From assembly GCA_004293935.1 (NCBI GenBank), contig RDZH01000011.1, positions 13,831 to 77,830 of the forward strand: a stretch of DNA of 64,000 bases. Reading direction: 5' to 3'. Origin of the DNA: Alphaproteobacteria bacterium. Its GTDB lineage: Bacteria; Pseudomonadota; Alphaproteobacteria; Rickettsiales; UBA998. A program made the position numbers and the translations under genes. Positions within the stretch are counted from its first letter, which is position 1. Every line of letters starts with the position of its first letter. Shown here piece by piece: positions 12,720 through 30,993 of the stretch. Below the pieces are notes generated by a model. The model worked only from the letters and a program-made list of their open reading frames with translations, did no database searches and was not told the DNA's origin.

Positions 12720-14120
12720 TTACATATGAATCACTTTACCATAGGCATCAAGTACAGCCTCATGCATCATCTCCGATAATGTCGGATGCGGGAAAATGGT
12801 ATGCATCAAATCAAGCTCGGTGCTTTCCAACGTTTTCGCAATACCATAACCTTGGATCATCTCCGTCACTTCTGCACCCACCATATGCGCGCCCAAAAGC
12901 TCACCTGTTTTTTCGTCAAAAATCGTCTTGACTAAGCCCTCAGGTTCACCCAAAGCAATGGCTTTACCGTTGCCCATAAACGAGAAACGTCCGATTTTCA
13001 CTTTATAGCCTTTTTCTTTCGCAGCACGCTCGGTTAAGCCAACGCTTGCAACTTGCGGACGGCAATAGGTACATCCCGGAATATTTTCAACCTTAAGAGG
13101 ATGAATATCCTTGAGTCCTGCGATTTTCTCTATGCATAATACGCCTTCATGGCTTGCTTTATGCGCCAACCACGGCGCACCAACGACATCCCCAATCGCA
13201 TAGACGTTGGGTTCATCGGTTTCACACCATTTATTGATGACAATATGTCCGCGATCGACTTTCACTTTGGTTTTATCAAGACCAAGTTTTTCCGTATTAC
13301 CGGTAATCCCGACCGCCATAATCACGCGCTCAACGGTAATTTCTTCGGTTTTCCCGTCTTTTTCCAACGTTACCGTGACATTATTTTTGCCTTTTTTGAA
13401 GGATTTGACATTGGTTTTGGTACGAATCTGCATTCCTTGTGCTTCAAATTGCTTCTGCACAAATTTAGAAATTTCATCATCTTCCACAGGAAGAACACGA
13501 TCTTGCACTTCTATCAATGTGACTTTTGATCCCATATTGAGGTAGAAACTCGCAAACTCCGAACCGATTGCCCCTGATCCCACTACAAGAATAGAGTTTG
13601 GCAGCTCTTTCGGTGTCATCGCTTCTTTGTACGTCCAAATCAATTCACCATCTGGTTCAAGATTCGGCAATACACGTGCGCGTGCGCCCGATGCAATGAT
13701 AATGTTTTTTGCAGAAACGTCCGCCACTTTCGCGCCGTCTTTTTCTACTTTAAGCTGCAACTTGCCCGTGAACGATGCATGACCATCAATCACCGTGACT
13801 TTATTCTTTTTCATCAAATGGCTAATGCCCTTGGTGAGTTGCTTGGATACACCGCGTGAACGTTCAATCACTTTAGCGAAATCAAACTTAATATCCTTCG
13901 CACTAAAACCATACTGATCCAACGAGTGCAGAAGATGATTAATCTCCGAGCATTTCAGCAATGCTTTGGTGGGGATACATCCCCAATTCAAGCAAATACC
14001 GCCCATATGCTCACGTTCAATTACCGCCGTTTTCATCCCTAATTGCGCAGCGCGGATGGCGGCCACATAGCCCCCAGGTCCCCCGCCAATAATTACTACG
14101 TCATACTGATCTGCCATCAT
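12720..14120 (-). CDS. lpdA: Dihydrolipoyl dehydrogenase (E3)
   Basis: FAD motif VVIIGGGPGGYVAAIRAAQLG, redox-active GGICLNWGCIPTK, NAD motif VGSGAIGSEFA, C-terminal HPTLSE. Confidence 0.92.
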   Translation of the reverse strand: MMADQYDVVIIGGGPGGYVAAIRAAQLGMKTAVIEREHMGGICLNWGCIPTKALLKCSEINHLLHSLDQYGFSAKDIKFDFAKVIERSRGVSKQLTKGISHLMKKNKVTVIDGHASFTGKLQLKVEKDGAKVADVSAKNIIIASGARARVLPNLEPDGELIWTYKEAMTPKELPNSILVVGSGAIGSEFASFYLNMGSKVTLIEVQDRVLPVEDDEISKFVQKQFEAQGMQIRTKTNVKSFKKGKNNVTVTLEKDGKTEEITVERVIMAVGITGNTEKLGLDKTKVKVDRGHIVINKWCETDEPNVYAIGDVVGAPWLAHKASHEGVLCIEKIAGLKDIHPLKVENIPGCTYCRPQVASVGLTERAAKEKGYKVKIGRFSFMGNGKAIALGEPEGLVKTIFDEKTGELLGAHMVGAEVTEMIQGYGIAKTLESTELDLMHTIFPHPTLSEMMHEAVLDAYGKVIHM

Positions 14121-25624: not shown

Positions 25625-25699
25625 GCCGTTGTGGCTCAGTGGTAGAGCACGTCATTGGTAATGACGGGGTCGAGAGTTCGATTCTCTTCAGCGGCACCA
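25625..25699 (+). tRNA. tRNA-Thr (anticodon GGU), CCA encoded
   Basis: Manual fold: acceptor GCCGTTG/CAGCGGC, D arm GCTC..GAGC, anticodon stem CGTCA/TGACG with loop TTGGTAA, T arm GAGAG-TTCGATT-CTCTC, then ACCA. Confidence 0.9.
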
Positions 25700-25723
25700 T
25701 ATGTTTATAGATACAGCGATACA

Positions 25724-26395
25724 TTATGATGCTGGGACGTGTATCGTGGCACGATGTTTTACCCAATAAAAGTGATATAAAATGGTTGCTTTCACTGCAC
25801 CACTAACACTCCCCATCAGAATTAATGGCCAGCCATTTTCTATACCGATAACGATGCCAAATAAAATATTCGCAATGTCCTTTAAGCAAAAGAGTAGCGT
25901 CATAGGAAAAGACAGCACGCCAACGCTTGCTTTTTGTCTGATTAATGTGATTTGATGCACACCTCCTTGCAACAACAAACAGGTTAAGCCCACGAGCATT
26001 AGTTGCGTAACCCCCTTCATGACAGGAGCAAAATCCAAGCGATAATAATAGGCTGCACTAGCAACTACAACAGAAAATAACAAACCCAAAATACTATTGT
26101 AGAATGTTTGTTTGCTACGCTCTAATGCAATCATATAAATAATAAATGCTGTTAGTACACATGCACCGAATCGTGTGAAAAACAAAAACAAATCAATCTC
26201 TTCTAATAAAAATGAATAGAGAAAAAACCCATAAAATGAAAAAAAGCTCGATAAAAACTGGTTCAATGATAATGCAACTGTGGCATGTGTGTTTCCAGCC
26301 CGTCTTTCTTTGAAAATACGTTTTATTTGGTCCGTTAATCCTCCCAAACACAACACGAATAATACTGAGCTTAGCAAACCAATAGCTTCATACAT
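25724..26395 (-). CDS. 7-TM membrane protein with two PQ-loop-like repeats (possible exporter)
   Basis: Seven hydrophobic segments. Two internally related segments (LTDQIKRIFKERRAGNTHATVALS; GGVHQITLIRQKASVGVLSFPM) resemble PQ-loop/SWEET-type repeats. ATG at 26395 is preferred over the track start at 26431, which overlaps a putative -10 box. Confidence 0.45.
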   Translation of the reverse strand: MYEAIGLLSSVLFVLCLGGLTDQIKRIFKERRAGNTHATVALSLNQFLSSFFSFYGFFLYSFLLEEIDLFLFFTRFGACVLTAFIIYMIALERSKQTFYNSILGLLFSVVVASAAYYYRLDFAPVMKGVTQLMLVGLTCLLLQGGVHQITLIRQKASVGVLSFPMTLLFCLKDIANILFGIVIGIENGWPLILMGSVSGAVKATILYHFYWVKHRATIHVPAS

Positions 26396-26427
26396 AAAAA
26401 ACTCTCTACACATGTCATGTACGTTAC

Positions 26428-26456
26428 ACATAAACTGACATTATTTGCTCTGTCAA
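26428..26456 (-). promoter_or_regulatory. Putative sigma-70-type promoter for the membrane-protein gene
   Basis: Minus strand TTGACA (26456-26451), 17 nt spacer, TTATGT (26433-26428). Pattern match only. Confidence 0.3.
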
Positions 26457-26560: not shown

Positions 26561-27664
26561 TTAGAACATCACGTCCATTTGCTTGCCTAAGCGTTCCGCA
26601 AAACTTTGTTGCTCGGATGAATACTCAAACAACGTTGGCAACGTTTCTGCATGACCGTGATATTCTGGCGGCATTACCACCAATGCATCTGATCCCCCCT
26701 GCCCTAATCCTGATAATGCCCGTGCCATCATCCCTGCAATATCCGTTCCCGCCATATCGTCAATATGCATAAATCCACCAGAGGGATTGATCTCTAAAAA
26801 CACCAATGTACCATCCTGATCTTCACGAAAATCCAATGCCCCATAGCGCAAACCAAGCGATTGCATGAGGGCGAGAATCTTGCGCTCCATGGATGCATCA
26901 AGAGTACATGCTTCAACTTTCGTGCGCACATCCATACGCACATCAAAAGGATATTCGGAGGTTCGCAAATCATAGCGTGCTGCCTGTATCTGATCATTAA
27001 TCACCGTCACACGATAATCATAATGCCCCGCTAGATAGCGTTGAAAGATGGTGGGACACAAATAGAGCGTATCTAATGCTGATGCCATCTCATCCTTCCA
27101 CAAACGCGTCGGTTGCCAATACATCGTATCCCCCATCCATGTGGTCGCCATTTTGAATATGGTGGCTGGGTCTTCTGAAACAAAAGTACGCGCATCATGC
27201 TCTGTTGAGGTGACGATACCTTCCGTGACGACTAAGCCCACTTCCTTTGCCTTGATTTTTTGAAATGCCCTGCGGCCTGCAGCATGCTGCGGATCGATGG
27301 GGTTATACCACTCAATGGCTTGGTTGCACTCTAATATGGCAAGCACAGACTCCCAAAATTGCGTAGTATCACGATGAATATAGCGGGTAACCGTAATATC
27401 ATTGATGCGTTGAAACGGGAAACTACCCGGCCTGCGCCACCAAATCGTCTGCACCTGATCAAAACAAACCTGTGTGCCGTCAAACATGGTGAGGATGACG
27501 CGTAAATCTTCAGTGATCGTTGCCGTATAATCAATGCCAAAGCGCGTATAATCACACAAAAACGGAATACTTGCTGCTGACATACGTTCCATAATGGGTT
27601 GGACATACACATCTTCCCATGTGGAAAAAATCAAGCATGTGGGGTAAAAAATTCGTGGCATCAT
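26561..27664 (-). CDS. ATP-grasp ligase, MvdC/MvdD (RiPP peptide maturase)-like, paralog 2
   Basis: N-terminal pre-domain PTCLIFST...VQTIWWRRPG. ATP-grasp core IFKMATT..., DYRVTVINDQIQAA, ALDFREDQDGTLVFLEINPSGGF. ATGATG directly follows the TAA of paralog 1, with AGGAG upstream. Confidence 0.6.
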   Translation of the reverse strand: MMPRIFYPTCLIFSTWEDVYVQPIMERMSAASIPFLCDYTRFGIDYTATITEDLRVILTMFDGTQVCFDQVQTIWWRRPGSFPFQRINDITVTRYIHRDTTQFWESVLAILECNQAIEWYNPIDPQHAAGRRAFQKIKAKEVGLVVTEGIVTSTEHDARTFVSEDPATIFKMATTWMGDTMYWQPTRLWKDEMASALDTLYLCPTIFQRYLAGHYDYRVTVINDQIQAARYDLRTSEYPFDVRMDVRTKVEACTLDASMERKILALMQSLGLRYGALDFREDQDGTLVFLEINPSGGFMHIDDMAGTDIAGMMARALSGLGQGGSDALVVMPPEYHGHAETLPTLFEYSSEQQSFAERLGKQMDVMF

Positions 27665-28756
27665 TTATCTCCTAATAACCTCAACATTGCCACCAACAGA
27701 TGCAGCAAAAGGCAGGCAGTTCGGGTCATAATCGAATCTATGCGCGTCATTGCGGATGGATGCATCATAATGCGCCTTGCCCCGATGAGTGGCAGAAAGT
27801 ACATCCGCCATAATCTGGGCTATATCAGAGCCTATATCTTGATCGACATACAGAAAACCACCTGACGGATTCACTTCAAGAAAGATCATCTCCCCATGGC
27901 GATTTTCACGAAAATCAAAGGCGGCATAGCGTAAGTGGGTGGCACGCATAAAAGCCTGTAGGGCGCGAATGGTTGCATCATCAATCGTGCATTGCTCCGC
28001 CTTCATGAAACGATCAATACGCACATCATACGGATAGCGGGATGATCCCGTATGGTACCGTGCAGCAATGACGTGATCATCAATCATCGTAATGCGATAA
28101 TCATAGACTCCATCAATATATTCCTGCACAATAATGGGGGCAACATAGAGCTTAGAAAGCTCATCAAGCATCTCATGCGTGAATTTTTTGGTCGGTTGCC
28201 AAAAAACATCATCACTGGAAAAAGTATGCTGTAGCTTGACGATGGCATCAGGATAATGCGCAATGAATGCTTCAACATCCACCTTTGAGGAGGTGATGAT
28301 CATCGGCACAGTCTTTAATCCAACATCACGGGCAATATGCTGCTGCACATATTTATTATCAATCGATCGTTCGTGATGTATATGATTATACTGGTAAATA
28401 TCGCGTTGATACATCAAGAATTCAAGCGCGTCCACCCAAAAACATACATGCTCCTTATAGACATATTTTGCGATCTCCAAACGAGAGAGCATATGATGAG
28501 GAAAGCCTTGCGGACGACGTATCCATACGGTGCTAAGCCGATCAAGATAGACTTCATCACCATCATAAAGTTGCAAGGTAATTATGCCATCATTTGTTAA
28601 ACTTGCGGTATAATCAACGCCATAGCGCGTATAGTCACAGATAAAGGGCATCGATGAGGACGACATATTTGCCACCACAGGCTCTATATGCCCATCAATT
28701 TTTTCTTCTCCCTTACGAACCGTGGATAAAATCAAGCATGTCGGATGGATTCTCAT
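27665..28756 (-). CDS. ATP-grasp ligase, MvdC/MvdD (RiPP peptide maturase)-like, paralog 1
   Basis: PTCLILST...LSTVWIRRPQG, AIVKLQHT, IVQEYIDGVYDYRITMIDDHVIAA, AFDFRENRHGEMIFLEVNPSGGF. Clearly paralogous to 26561-27664. Confidence 0.6.
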   Translation of the reverse strand: MRIHPTCLILSTVRKGEEKIDGHIEPVVANMSSSSMPFICDYTRYGVDYTASLTNDGIITLQLYDGDEVYLDRLSTVWIRRPQGFPHHMLSRLEIAKYVYKEHVCFWVDALEFLMYQRDIYQYNHIHHERSIDNKYVQQHIARDVGLKTVPMIITSSKVDVEAFIAHYPDAIVKLQHTFSSDDVFWQPTKKFTHEMLDELSKLYVAPIIVQEYIDGVYDYRITMIDDHVIAARYHTGSSRYPYDVRIDRFMKAEQCTIDDATIRALQAFMRATHLRYAAFDFRENRHGEMIFLEVNPSGGFLYVDQDIGSDIAQIMADVLSATHRGKAHYDASIRNDAHRFDYDPNCLPFAASVGGNVEVIRR

Positions 28757-28762
28757 AAGGCT

Positions 28763-28996
28763 CTACTTTTGCTCAGGTGTGATGGTAGTAATATCCGCCG
28801 TGGCGCGCACATAATAGGCGTTATAGGTGCGCCCCTCTCGACGCTTTGGTTCAAGGGGCAGTATGACATGAAGCTCCGTCTTAGGAAAACACAGCAAAGT
28901 TTTATCATATTGTTCCACATGCATGGTATCCGCATGTTCATCATCACAATAGCCGCGCACAACGCGCATATTTTCTTGGGGATGTATTTCAGTCAT
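28763..28996 (-). CDS. 77-aa ORF, candidate RiPP precursor peptide (or small accessory protein)
   Basis: ATGA overlap with the oxygenase stop. GAGGAA lies 9 nt upstream. Ends 6 nt before ATP-grasp 1. C-terminus GRTYNAYYVRATADITTITPEQK is rich in Thr/Asp/Glu/Lys. Confidence 0.5.
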   Translation of the reverse strand: MTEIHPQENMRVVRGYCDDEHADTMHVEQYDKTLLCFPKTELHVILPLEPKRREGRTYNAYYVRATADITTITPEQK

Positions 28997-29817
28997 GTGG
29001 GGCGTTCCTCATTGGTGAATTTTATTAAACAACTAAAGCGTTCCTGCTGTGCTGCATCGGTCACTACGCGATGTATGGGAACATGAATCGGCATCTCATG
29101 AGGCTCAGCCCATTCTCTCAAGGCAGCACCAAAATGTAGGAAAAAGCACTGTTGCGGAAAATGCAGATGGTAATATTCGCCTTGTGCATTCATAAACTGC
29201 AAAGCATTTTTACCAGAAATCACAGGGATCGTTAAGGTAATGCCCCACAAATCAATATGAGGTTTCATACGCATAAAATGGTTCTCTACTGGCTGTGCGC
29301 CTGCAATTTGCGTTCCCTCATGCACAGGATAATAATAATTATATTCCAAAAAATAATGCGATACATCAAAGTTGGATAATAGTCTTTGCGGAGGAAGTTG
29401 ATAGATATTCTCTAACATCGCAACCACGGTGCGCGTGCAATCGGTGAAGATGCGTACTGCCTCTGCTAGTTGCATACATAGAGAGCCTGAATCCTGTTCA
29501 TGCCCCACAATCTTTGTCCCCCCCCCCAAAAACATAAAGCGCAAAATATGGGAATAGGAATTATTATGGACGAATACATACCCCCCCTTATGGAGTGAAA
29601 AATCATCCAGAACATGCTTATGATGATCATAGAGTTCTTTAGGGTTATGACGCACAATAGGCACTGCCATTGACTGCAAAAGGTGCAATGCCCGAGCAAG
29701 AGGCGCGTCATCTGCTTCCACCATGAGCGCGCCATAGGTTTGGGCGTGATGCTTCACGATGGGAAGCATGTCTGCATCATCTGCCGATAAACGAGAATAA
29801 GGTATGATGTGTTCCAT
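28993..29817 (-). CDS. 2-oxoglutarate/Fe(II)-dependent oxygenase
   Basis: Facial triad and co-substrate motifs in the canonical order: KPHIDLWGITLT (HxD), ALQF, FFLHFGAALREW, IHRVV (distal His), ERFSCLIKF (RxS). Confidence 0.7.
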   Translation of the reverse strand: MEHIIPYSRLSADDADMLPIVKHHAQTYGALMVEADDAPLARALHLLQSMAVPIVRHNPKELYDHHKHVLDDFSLHKGGYVFVHNNSYSHILRFMFLGGGTKIVGHEQDSGSLCMQLAEAVRIFTDCTRTVVAMLENIYQLPPQRLLSNFDVSHYFLEYNYYYPVHEGTQIAGAQPVENHFMRMKPHIDLWGITLTIPVISGKNALQFMNAQGEYYHLHFPQQCFFLHFGAALREWAEPHEMPIHVPIHRVVTDAAQQERFSCLIKFTNEERPT

Positions 29818-29919: not shown

Positions 29920-30142
29920 AAACTATCAAAACTTAACATCATGAAATATACAGAGAATGACTCTATACTTAGTATTTACTTAAGTAATTATTATTTTTTT
30001 ATTAGTAAAACGGCAAAATAATGCACTTTTTCCCAAAACTGTAATAAATTAGTCATAATTGTTTGGTATATTTATTTTAACGGGGAAGAAAAAACATCCG
30101 TTTCAAACAACAACAAACAACAACAAATAATGGAGAGTAATT

Positions 30143-30364
30143 ATGGCTGGAAGAACAAGTGATGGACAAGGCGGTCAAACTTGCAAACAAGGTGACAAAA
30201 AATGTTACGATGATTTATTTTCAGAAAAAGATGGAAAAGAAGCACCGGGCGTGGCGTTCGCCGCTGCAGTGCAAGGAGTTGCACCTGTTTCTCCGCATGA
30301 TTCACCGACTGCACCATCTGTTCCAAGTGCGGGCAAAGGCAAGGATCAAGGCATGAGCGTATAA
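30143..30364 (+). CDS. 73-aa small protein (alternative precursor-peptide candidate)
   Basis: GGAGAG lies 7 nt upstream of the ATG and is preceded by (CAAACAACAA)x2. A 17-bp hairpin follows. Sequence is rich in G/K/D/S/T/P/A. No family recognised. Confidence 0.45.
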   Translation: MAGRTSDGQGGQTCKQGDKKCYDDLFSEKDGKEAPGVAFAAAVQGVAPVSPHDSPTAPSVPSAGKGKDQGMSV

Positions 30365-30424: not shown

Positions 30425-30745
30425 AAGTGCGTTCATAGAACGCCCATTCAATAATGAAACGTACCACTGCCTAAATTGAAAATCATAGGCAGTTGAGCGA
30501 AGCATATGCCACCTTATAGTTTAGAACAACGGCAAGGTAATAACCATGCTTCATCTCAACCACGTGGAAATTTACCAGATTTATGCATACAGCGATAATT
30601 GGATTATTGCTTCGGGCAAATAGCTTTGCGCCTTGGCAGGCATCATAGCGTGATAAGCAGATAAATTGCACGCAACCGCGATGATGGGCGTATCATGCGG
30701 ATCAAGCGCACCATGATGCTACATCACGCCCAATATACGCAAGTT

Positions 30746-30789
30746 CTCGCACGCGTGACATAATAATCTCGCGCATGTGACATAATAAA
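30746..30789. repeat. Tandem 22-nt direct repeat
   Basis: CTCGCACGCGTGACATAATAAT / CTCGCGCATGTGACATAATAAA, adjacent copies, 115 nt from the 3' end of tRNA-Ser. Confidence 0.7.

Positions 30790-30903: not shown

Positions 30904-30993
<90 letters not shown>

Follow-up and report, generated by a model that had tools for sequence, protein, structure and literature searches.

Gene content of the locus

This work concerns a small open reading frame (ORF) encoding 77 amino acids (aa) and the operon in which it lies, in a 64,000-nucleotide (nt) stretch of DNA (positions 13,831 to 77,830 of contig RDZH01000011.1, GenBank assembly GCA_004293935.1; hereafter the window) from a metagenome-assembled genome labelled Alphaproteobacteria bacterium. 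Five genes, in the order 274-aa gene, 77-aa ORF, ligase 1, ligase 2 and 235-aa membrane protein, lie between a tRNA-Ser gene (30904–30993, minus strand) and a tRNA-Thr gene (25625–25699, plus strand). An earlier note, made from the sequence alone, had read the small ORF as a leader–core precursor of the graspetide type. The features discussed here are the following.

28993–29817, minus strand: first gene of the operon, a putative 2-oxoglutarate (2OG)-Fe(II) oxygenase of 274 aa with weak PF03171 matches
29005–29010, minus strand: GAGGAA Shine-Dalgarno sequence of the small ORF, read from the sequence, 8 nt before the ATG and within the 3' end of the oxygenase gene
28996 to 28763, minus strand: 77-aa small ORF, GenBank TAF77154.1, annotated as a hypothetical protein
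28808–28966, minus strand: residues 11–63, a conserved region predicted to be beta-rich, proposed recognition ('leader') domain
28766–28807, minus strand: residues 64–77, the variable C-terminal tail (RATADITTITPEQK), proposed modification site
27665–28756, minus strand: ATP-grasp ligase 1, 363 aa, graspetide-synthetase-like, with TIGR04187, MvdC and MvdD matches and the sequence AFDFRE
26561–27664, minus strand: ATP-grasp ligase 2, 367 aa, a paralogue of ligase 1 (37% identity) containing ALDFRE
25724–26431, minus strand: polytopic membrane protein of 235 aa, 130 nt after ligase 2, with five or more hydrophobic segments, each about 19 residues long or longer
30143–30364, plus strand: divergent 73-aa ORF, TAF77156.1, with a GGAGAG Shine-Dalgarno sequence, also open in a strain variant

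The genes around the small ORF are tightly packed. Its ATG (28996–28994) overlaps the TGA (28995–28993) of the upstream 274-aa gene in an ATGA arrangement, 6 nt separate its TAG stop from the ATG of ligase 1 at 28756, and the ATG of ligase 2 stands directly after the ligase 1 stop codon. The ATGA overlap, the separate GAGGAA sequence and the 6-nt gap, all pointed out in the earlier note, were recovered from the sequence as described. So was the placement of the ORF between an oxygenase and ligases, the ligases being graspetide-synthetase-like and the oxygenase match weak. Rfam searches detected no regulatory RNA in the region besides the two tRNAs, and no relation to defence systems or phages was found.

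The small ORF is a selected gene with a syntenic homologue

The family of the 77-aa protein consists of three sequences, one of them from a nearly identical strain variant (Logan contig L005), in which the cluster DNA is approximately 94–95% identical to that of the window. Between these two versions, the small ORF carries 14 synonymous and 5 non-synonymous differences, giving a ratio of non-synonymous to synonymous substitution rates (dN/dS) of 0.08, comparable to the 0.08–0.12 of the flanking enzymes. When 1.84 billion representative proteins were searched exhaustively with phmmer, a single further family member was identified, P0004 (80 aa, E = 2e-18, 55% identity). This protein is encoded on an independent metagenomic JGI contig (L004, 1.4 kb) in the same gene order as in the window: the gene for a 276-aa orthologue of the oxygenase-like protein (52% identical) is followed after 4 nt by the small ORF, which in turn overlaps an orthologue of ligase 1 in an ATGA. 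The ligase is partial on this contig; it is 58% identical to ligase 1 without gaps, versus 43% with a gap to ligase 2. Because the gene order of the window recurs in this diverged contig, the linkage between the oxygenase-like gene, the small ORF and ligase 1 is conserved over substantial divergence. The small ORF is a genuine, selected gene and more than a chance reading frame, since its dN/dS resembles that of the flanking enzymes and it has a syntenic homologue with 55% identity; the earlier judgement that it is not noise was correct.

The strain variant differs from the window by an 87-nt insertion between the small-ORF stop and the ligase ATG (L005 10235–10322, corresponding to window 28757–28762), which abolishes the tight 6-nt spacing. 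This insertion folds as a stable hairpin (-24.8 kcal/mol, z = -4.05) with no T-run after it, and no copy of it was found within the window. It could be an mRNA-stabilizing or attenuating element behind a precursor gene, or a small mobile insertion.

Among approximately 15 billion proteins, the family is represented by two sequence clusters, which makes it extremely rare. A word-indexed search with the ORF and with a two-sequence profile returned nothing beyond the two known members. Similarly, no further loci emerged from two metagenome scans (with the small-ORF and the oxygenase alignments) or from two genome scans with the ligase alignments, and neither a scan of the viral collection with the small-ORF alignment nor a tblastn search of plasmids with the 77-aa ORF gave a match. 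The 77-aa protein matched no Pfam, NCBIfam, PHROGs or PADLOC entry (for Pfam and NCBIfam, none even at E-values up to 10), and a profile search of the PDB yielded only noise. A relationship of the small ORF to either neighbouring enzyme was tested and rejected.

Anatomy of the 77-aa protein

Residues 1–10 of the protein are variable (3/10 identical in P0004), residues 11–63 are 60% identical (32/53) with many additional conservative changes, and in residues 64–77 only two of 14 positions are shared, the tail being 14 residues long in the window and 19 in P0004 (RATADITTITPEQK and NSDAEIQYVDSVKEMGDPS, respectively). The identities in residues 11–63 include C17, C36, G15, G55, P47, P50 and six aromatic residues. 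This conserved block runs into the first half of the core proposed earlier, as G-[RK]-T-Y-x-x-Y-Y-V-x-x-x-A-[DE]-I (G55–I69), so that P0004 retains T57 and an acidic residue at position 68 but not the sequence of the Thr/Glu/Lys-rich end. As a conserved unit, the proposed 22-residue core was therefore not upheld: its first half is conserved, and its end (residues 64–77) differs in both sequence and length. In addition, T70 is replaced by Val in the L005 strain variant, so that at least this residue is dispensable.

The C-terminal string had been described as 22 residues with four Thr; it comprises 23 residues and five Thr, four of them in the last 14, the description being otherwise accurate. 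Thr, Asp, Glu and Lys make up 8/23 of these residues, a level reached by 12% of the 23-residue segments in the long ORFs of the window, so that the concentration claimed for the C-terminus exists and is modest. Over the last 14 residues the count is 7/14, which is reached by 2.3% of segments. For Thr alone, the levels are reached by 0.9–1.4%. When Ser is included, these residues represent 50% of the tail in the window protein and 47% in P0004, versus 30–33% of the remainder of each protein. Each tail contains exactly one Lys; the C-terminal residue is Lys in the window and Ser in P0004.

An AF2 model built on the two-sequence alignment contains six beta strands and no helix at low confidence (pLDDT 57.7), with strands at residues 11–16, 24–28, 34–38, 42–53 and 56–65 (pLDDT about 60). 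A Foldseek search of the PDB with this low-confidence model returned nothing below E = 1. The protein is acidic (13 Asp/Glu versus 10 Lys/Arg) and has only two Cys, without a CxxC. The region preceding the C-terminal string, previously taken as a leader, is well conserved; it is unusually long for that role, and its predicted all-beta character would suit a folded domain or a partner protein equally. The absence of a TxKxPSDxE[DE] core motif, remarked on before, extends to P0004 as well as the 77-aa sequence. The comparison with small ORFs at homologous ATP-grasp loci that had been suggested gave a conserved N-terminal region and no shared spacing of Thr, Asp, Glu and Lys (one homologue).

The enzymes encoded with the small ORF

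The hallmarks of 2OG-Fe(II) oxygenases are an HxD...H iron triad, an RxS 2OG-binding motif and a double-stranded beta-helix. The 274-aa protein and its L004 orthologue match PF03171 (2OG-FeII_Oxy) over the same region, with E-values of 0.077 and 0.0096, respectively, both below the cut-off. Between the two orthologues, H187-x-D189, H245/H249 and R260-x-S262 are invariant, and these residues may constitute the iron triad and the 2OG site. An AF2 model of the 274-aa protein, made from near-identical sequences, had a pLDDT of 31, which leaves the fold unsupported. The match is weak but consistent, and the upstream gene is regarded here as a putative 2OG-Fe(II) oxygenase.

For both ligases, the best NCBIfam matches are TIGR04187, MvdC and MvdD (E 1e-24 to 1e-37; for ligase 1, 7e-36, 1e-25 and 1e-24, respectively). 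The scores of 124–129, 90–91 and 87 bits miss the curated cut-offs of 350, 425 and 475. Because the best matches fall this far below the cut-offs, the two enzymes are placed, by profile comparison, inside the graspetide-synthetase clade and in no curated maturase family. Their best matches in the PDB are 9bou, 5ig8, 7mgv (CdnC), 7m4s (AMdnB), 5ig9 and 7drm, of which 5ig8 and 5ig9 (labelled 'ATP grasp ligase' in the search) are taken here to be MdnB and MdnC. The alignments are near full length and include the pre-ATP-grasp N-domain. In contrast, the RimK and LysX models match weakly (E 1e-12 to 1e-5, about 2e-5 for LysX, versus 1e-36 for graspetide maturases). Both ligases show the three features used to assign an enzyme to the graspetide class, namely membership of the clade, the pre-ATP-grasp N-domain and a DFR motif, the last of which is critical for graspetide synthetase activity (PMC13097080).

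The 235-aa membrane protein has no Pfam or NCBIfam match and may be an exporter.

Small ORFs beside related ligases

The ligases of the window are isolated: a word-indexed search returned only one enzyme, a 26%-identical grasp-with-spasm protein (P0003). Among the relatives that could be retrieved, the closest ligases are found on the conjugative plasmid NZ_CP049245.1 of Allorhizobium pseudoryzae (L009; 33% identical, E 6e-47, plasmid collection) and on the IMG/VR contig UViG_3300005519_000202 (L013; 29% identical, E 5e-43, viral collection), in the following modules.

L009, 6708–8059: small ORF and ligase, WP_165225915.1 and WP_165225913.1
L013, 2235–3580: small ORF and ligase

In both modules, an ORF of 97–98 aa has a stop codon that overlaps the GTG start of the ligase (GTGA), and there is a single ligase and no oxygenase. 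The pair on L013 looks stand-alone, as nothing else there appears to belong to it. The small ORFs of the two modules are 71% identical and the ligases 53% identical, and the last 15 residues of the small ORFs (KWVDDGGTISKSRDD) are the same in both. To judge from its sequence, this invariant end would look like a graspetide core, and the ORF likely represents an undescribed family of graspetide precursors. Among more distant relatives, the ligase on a Bradyrhizobium plasmid is preceded, at a distance of 85 nt, by a 73-aa ORF that looks like a classic precursor and ends in VTVSTRADTCTCTGCPTNDSDA, and a Phyllobacterium ligase has an unannotated ORF upstream with a Ser/Asp-rich end. The rule in this part of the ligase tree is thus a small ORF immediately before the ligase, with a C-terminus rich in hydroxyl and acidic residues. 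In the minimal modules, the upstream small ORF is the only candidate substrate, and in the closest relatives it overlaps the ligase start.

Three other observations were made at loci with related enzymes. In Burkholderia stagnalis (NZ_CP156686.1; L010, 4430–5998), a 522-aa protein with the zinc-metalloprotease motif HEIGHWLNLRH is encoded upstream of a related ligase, and its C-terminal part contains repeats of the form [IL]-x-[TS]-x-D-x-x-P-T (e.g., IATADQPT and LATADHIPT); these might be target sites of the ligase that recur along a large protein. The string 'ATAD' is also present in the tail of the window protein (RATADIT), which may be coincidence. At the grasp-with-spasm locus of P0003 (L006, 220–411; L007, 1242–1445), a precursor-like ORF with a GG leader (…LKQIRGG/DHTNINMPTYNTKCNCTINDGYSTEDNKKKKPTRV) lies well upstream of the ligase. 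Finally, an 'LCF' match between the 77-aa ORF and the L009 ORF was considered and rejected, the segment not being conserved in L013.

A candidate substrate of the ligases

The most parsimonious reading, which we consider somewhat more probable than not, is that a rare and divergent pathway of the graspetide type has the 77-aa product as its ribosomally made substrate; this reading is based on gene position and on analogy. It is favoured because the small ORF is a real gene with a conserved linkage to the enzymes, because the ligases are of the graspetide type and no other credible substrate is encoded in the operon, and because the closest ligase relatives carry a small ORF in the same coupled position. 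The composition of the two tails, both rich in Ser, Thr, Asp, Glu and Lys with a single Lys each, and the conservation of T57 and of the acidic residue at 68 also argue for it. Within the operon, the 77-aa ORF is the only same-strand small ORF that resembles a precursor candidate; the other small ORFs on this strand, located ahead of the oxygenase gene or in the gap between ligase 2 and the membrane gene, do not have a fitting composition.

In the proposed mechanism, residues 11–63, approximately, would act as a long, conserved, beta-rich recognition module in the role of a leader, docking onto the ligases. The two paralogous ligases would use ATP to activate side-chain carboxylates, for which D68 and E75 are candidates, and would join them to hydroxyl or amine side chains, the candidates being the conserved T57, followed by T66, T71, T73 and K77. 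Rings closed by ester or isopeptide bonds would result, within the C-terminal segment or close to it. The co-translated oxygenase-like protein might hydroxylate the peptide, activate the ligases (as CorC does in corallotide biosynthesis; PMC13097080), or both, and the downstream membrane protein may export the product. We infer the identity of the substrate, the linked residues and the roles of the oxygenase and of the membrane protein from the arrangement described above.

Several points weigh against this interpretation. The Thr/Asp/Glu/Lys-rich tail is the least conserved part of the protein, its compositional signal is weak, and no donor/acceptor spacing is common to the two family members; a known graspetide group usually keeps its core motif. 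No homology of the 77-aa protein to any known precursor family was detected. Its similarity to the small ORFs of L009 and L013 is likewise not detectable, with no BLASTP alignment, an hhalign probability below 1% and shuffle p values of 0.05–0.17. The putative leader is better conserved than the neighbouring enzyme (60% over 53 residues versus 52%), and its conserved Cys, Gly, Pro and aromatic residues, together with the six predicted strands, would be hallmarks of a folded beta domain. Translational coupling in the middle of an operon suits a stoichiometric subunit as well as a substrate. At the P0003 locus, a separate 67-aa ORF that is not the GG-leader precursor lies between the ATP-grasp and SPASM-type genes. 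Moreover, graspetide synthetases that depend on a partner protein have been documented (PMC13097080).

In the main alternative, the 77-aa protein would be a partner, adaptor or scaffold, i.e., a small folded beta protein that binds, activates, stabilizes or bridges the ligases and the oxygenase, while the true substrate lies elsewhere, for example in the divergent 73-aa ORF or in a host protein. The conserved, predicted all-beta region, the poorly conserved tail, the roughly 1:1 expression with the enzymes implied by the ATGA coupling and the non-precursor small ORF at the grasp-with-spasm locus would all fit such a role, for which MirC, and CorC activating CorB, are precedents (PMC13097080). 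The 73-aa ORF has a conserved N-terminus rich in Thr, Lys and Asp (TCKQGDKKCYDD) and a frame that stays open in the strain variant. However, it is on the opposite strand, 326 nt away, with no leader-like part before its Thr/Lys/Asp-rich stretch, and the operon strand carries no other convincing substrate gene. The modules on L009 and L013 consist essentially of a small ORF and a ligase, and the perfectly conserved Asp/Thr/Ser/Lys tail of that ORF looks like a substrate rather than an adaptor. In addition, no fold match was found for the 77-aa protein, and its predicted topology (in the low-confidence AF2 model) lacks the helices of a RiPP recognition element (RRE). Taken jointly, the partner role and a substrate encoded elsewhere seem unlikely, if still worth considering.

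An RRE, or PqqD-like, domain is a winged helix-turn-helix with three helices and a three-stranded sheet. This identity was rejected for the 77-aa protein, which has no profile match, six strands and no helix in the AF2 model (low confidence, pLDDT 57.7), and no fold match.

A further, tentative proposal is that, rather than a classical disordered leader–core peptide, the protein is a folded beta mini-protein and the founding member of a new class. In one version, the tail or the T57...D/E68 segment would be cross-linked and hydroxylated with the domain attached; in the other, the protein would be an obligatory small subunit presenting a substrate to the ligase pair and the oxygenase. We regard this, too, as somewhat improbable.

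LysW, of approximately 54 aa, has a zinc ribbon (CxxC...CxxC), ends in a conserved acidic sequence (EDWGE) and is partnered by a LysX-type ligase. A carrier or tagged protein like LysW or ribosomal protein S6, to whose carboxylate the ligases would add amino acids or a metabolite instead of forming rings, would account for the weak RimK and LysX matches, for a small acidic protein encoded beside ATP-grasp enzymes, and for a layout of folded domain plus tail such as LysW is generally known to have. It is nevertheless highly improbable: the ligases match graspetide maturases far better and have the pre-ATP-grasp N-domain, the C-terminal residue of the small protein is non-conserved (Lys versus Ser) and non-acidic, its two Cys form no CxxC zinc-ribbon pattern, and the nearby genes include no biosynthetic enzymes of a carrier-dependent pathway. 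Lastly, a chance ORF or a mis-framed reading without a product, which the overlapping alternative ORFs (28745–29086, plus strand; 28753–28962, minus strand) and the lack of a match to any known family might have suggested, is effectively refuted by the dN/dS of 0.08 in this frame, by P0004 in conserved synteny, and by the Shine-Dalgarno sequence with start/stop coupling at both ends.

Other features around the cluster

Upstream of the oxygenase gene, a hydrophobic ORF of 21 aa (29991–30056, minus strand; MTNLLQFWEKVHYFAVLLIKK) stays open in the strain variant (MTNLLQFKIKMHYFAILLIK), although the intergenic DNA around it is only about 82% identical. It was rejected as an alternative precursor, having no part rich in Thr, Asp, Glu or Lys, and may encode a small membrane peptide or serve as an upstream ORF. 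In the divergent 73-aa ORF, comparison with L005 showed conservation of the 5' untranslated region and of about 25 codons at either end of the frame (MAGRTSDGQGGQTCKQGDKKCYDD at the start). Its centre (about 75 nt) is highly diverged without any indel, so that 29 of 73 aa differ (dN/dS 0.55), and its dS is approximately three times that of the neighbouring genes.

A direct repeat of 18 nt (16/18 matching; 25704–25721 and 30580–30597) flanks the cluster and the 73-aa ORF, one copy standing directly after the tRNA-Thr gene and the other about 300 nt from the tRNA-Ser gene. This hints at an inserted island; about 0.3 such pairs are expected by chance (a rough estimate), and no integrase is present. 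Near the tRNA-Ser gene there is also a tandem 22-nt repeat in two copies (TCTCGCRCRYGTGACATAATAA; 30745–30788).

Comparison with known graspetide systems

More than 40 groups of graspetides and more than 20,000 predicted precursors are recognized (PMC13097080). The unusual trait of the present system is the combination of a long conserved N-terminal region of predicted beta type with a variable tail. If the 77-aa protein is a substrate, it would define an undescribed graspetide group and a new precursor family without a known core motif, in which a dual ligase and a divergent 2OG oxygenase-like protein occur together with an unusually long, conserved recognition region of beta type. If it is a partner protein instead, it would add to the very recent evidence that certain graspetide synthetases depend on accessory proteins. 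Either version of the folded mini-protein, if true, would add a mode of recognition that is undescribed for graspetide synthetases. The wider impact is limited, since the family is extremely rare and graspetide diversity is already large; two genes annotated as hypothetical would nonetheless gain a concrete, testable substrate hypothesis.

The microviridin system (group 1; MdnA with MdnB and MdnC) resembles the window in that two paralogous ATP-grasp ligases of the same clade adjoin a small ORF, and its side-chain ester and amide rings represent, by analogy, the chemistry expected here. In contrast, neither the 77-aa protein nor P0004 has a PFFARFL-type leader motif or a TxKxPSDx[ED][ED] core, and the conserved N-terminal part of the window protein is much longer and predicted to be beta-rich. 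The window cluster contains an oxygenase-like gene, lacks an acetyltransferase and an ABC transporter, and has ligases that score 87–91 bits against the MvdC and MvdD cut-offs of 425 and 475.

Two characterized systems associate an oxygenase with the ligase. In the corallotide system (CorA–D; group 15), the product is hydroxylated by a divergent 2OG-Fe(II) oxygenase that is also an activator of the ligase; CorA is a protein of approximately 22 kDa with five KxxxD repeats, CorC belongs to PF13640, CorD is beta-lactamase-like, and there is a single ligase (PMC13097080). The window shares the pairing of a graspetide synthetase with a divergent 2OG-Fe(II) oxygenase, here putative, and CorA also has an enzyme-binding N-terminal domain; unlike corallotide, the window has two ligases and no KxxxD motif, PF13640 match or beta-lactamase in the operon. 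In the SmaA/SmaB/SmaO/SmaX system (group 18), an Fe(II)/2OG oxygenase accompanies an ATP-grasp ligase and a small precursor. SmaA has a GG leader cleaved by a peptidase-containing ABC transporter (PCAT), the modified Asp lies in DGDG, and SmaX is an HD-domain partner (PMC12186529). As in the window, an oxygenase-like gene, an ATP-grasp ligase and a small ORF are encoded together; the GG leader, PCAT, HD-domain partner and DGDG are absent from the window.

For a partner role, the relevant system is rosaritide (MirA/MirB/MirC), in which a co-encoded protein that is not a substrate is required for graspetide synthetase activity (PMC13097080). MirC has 315 aa and a SurA-like chaperone domain, whereas family and fold searches detected no such domain in the 77-aa protein. 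Finally, the modules on L009 and L013 differ from the window by their single ligase, by the lack of an oxygenase and by a tail that is strictly conserved, in contrast to the variable tail of the 77-aa family; they resemble it in that a small ORF is coupled to a ligase, in their case a beta-looking ORF of approximately 100 aa with an overlap into the ligase gene and an Asp/Thr/Ser/Lys-rich C-terminal tail.

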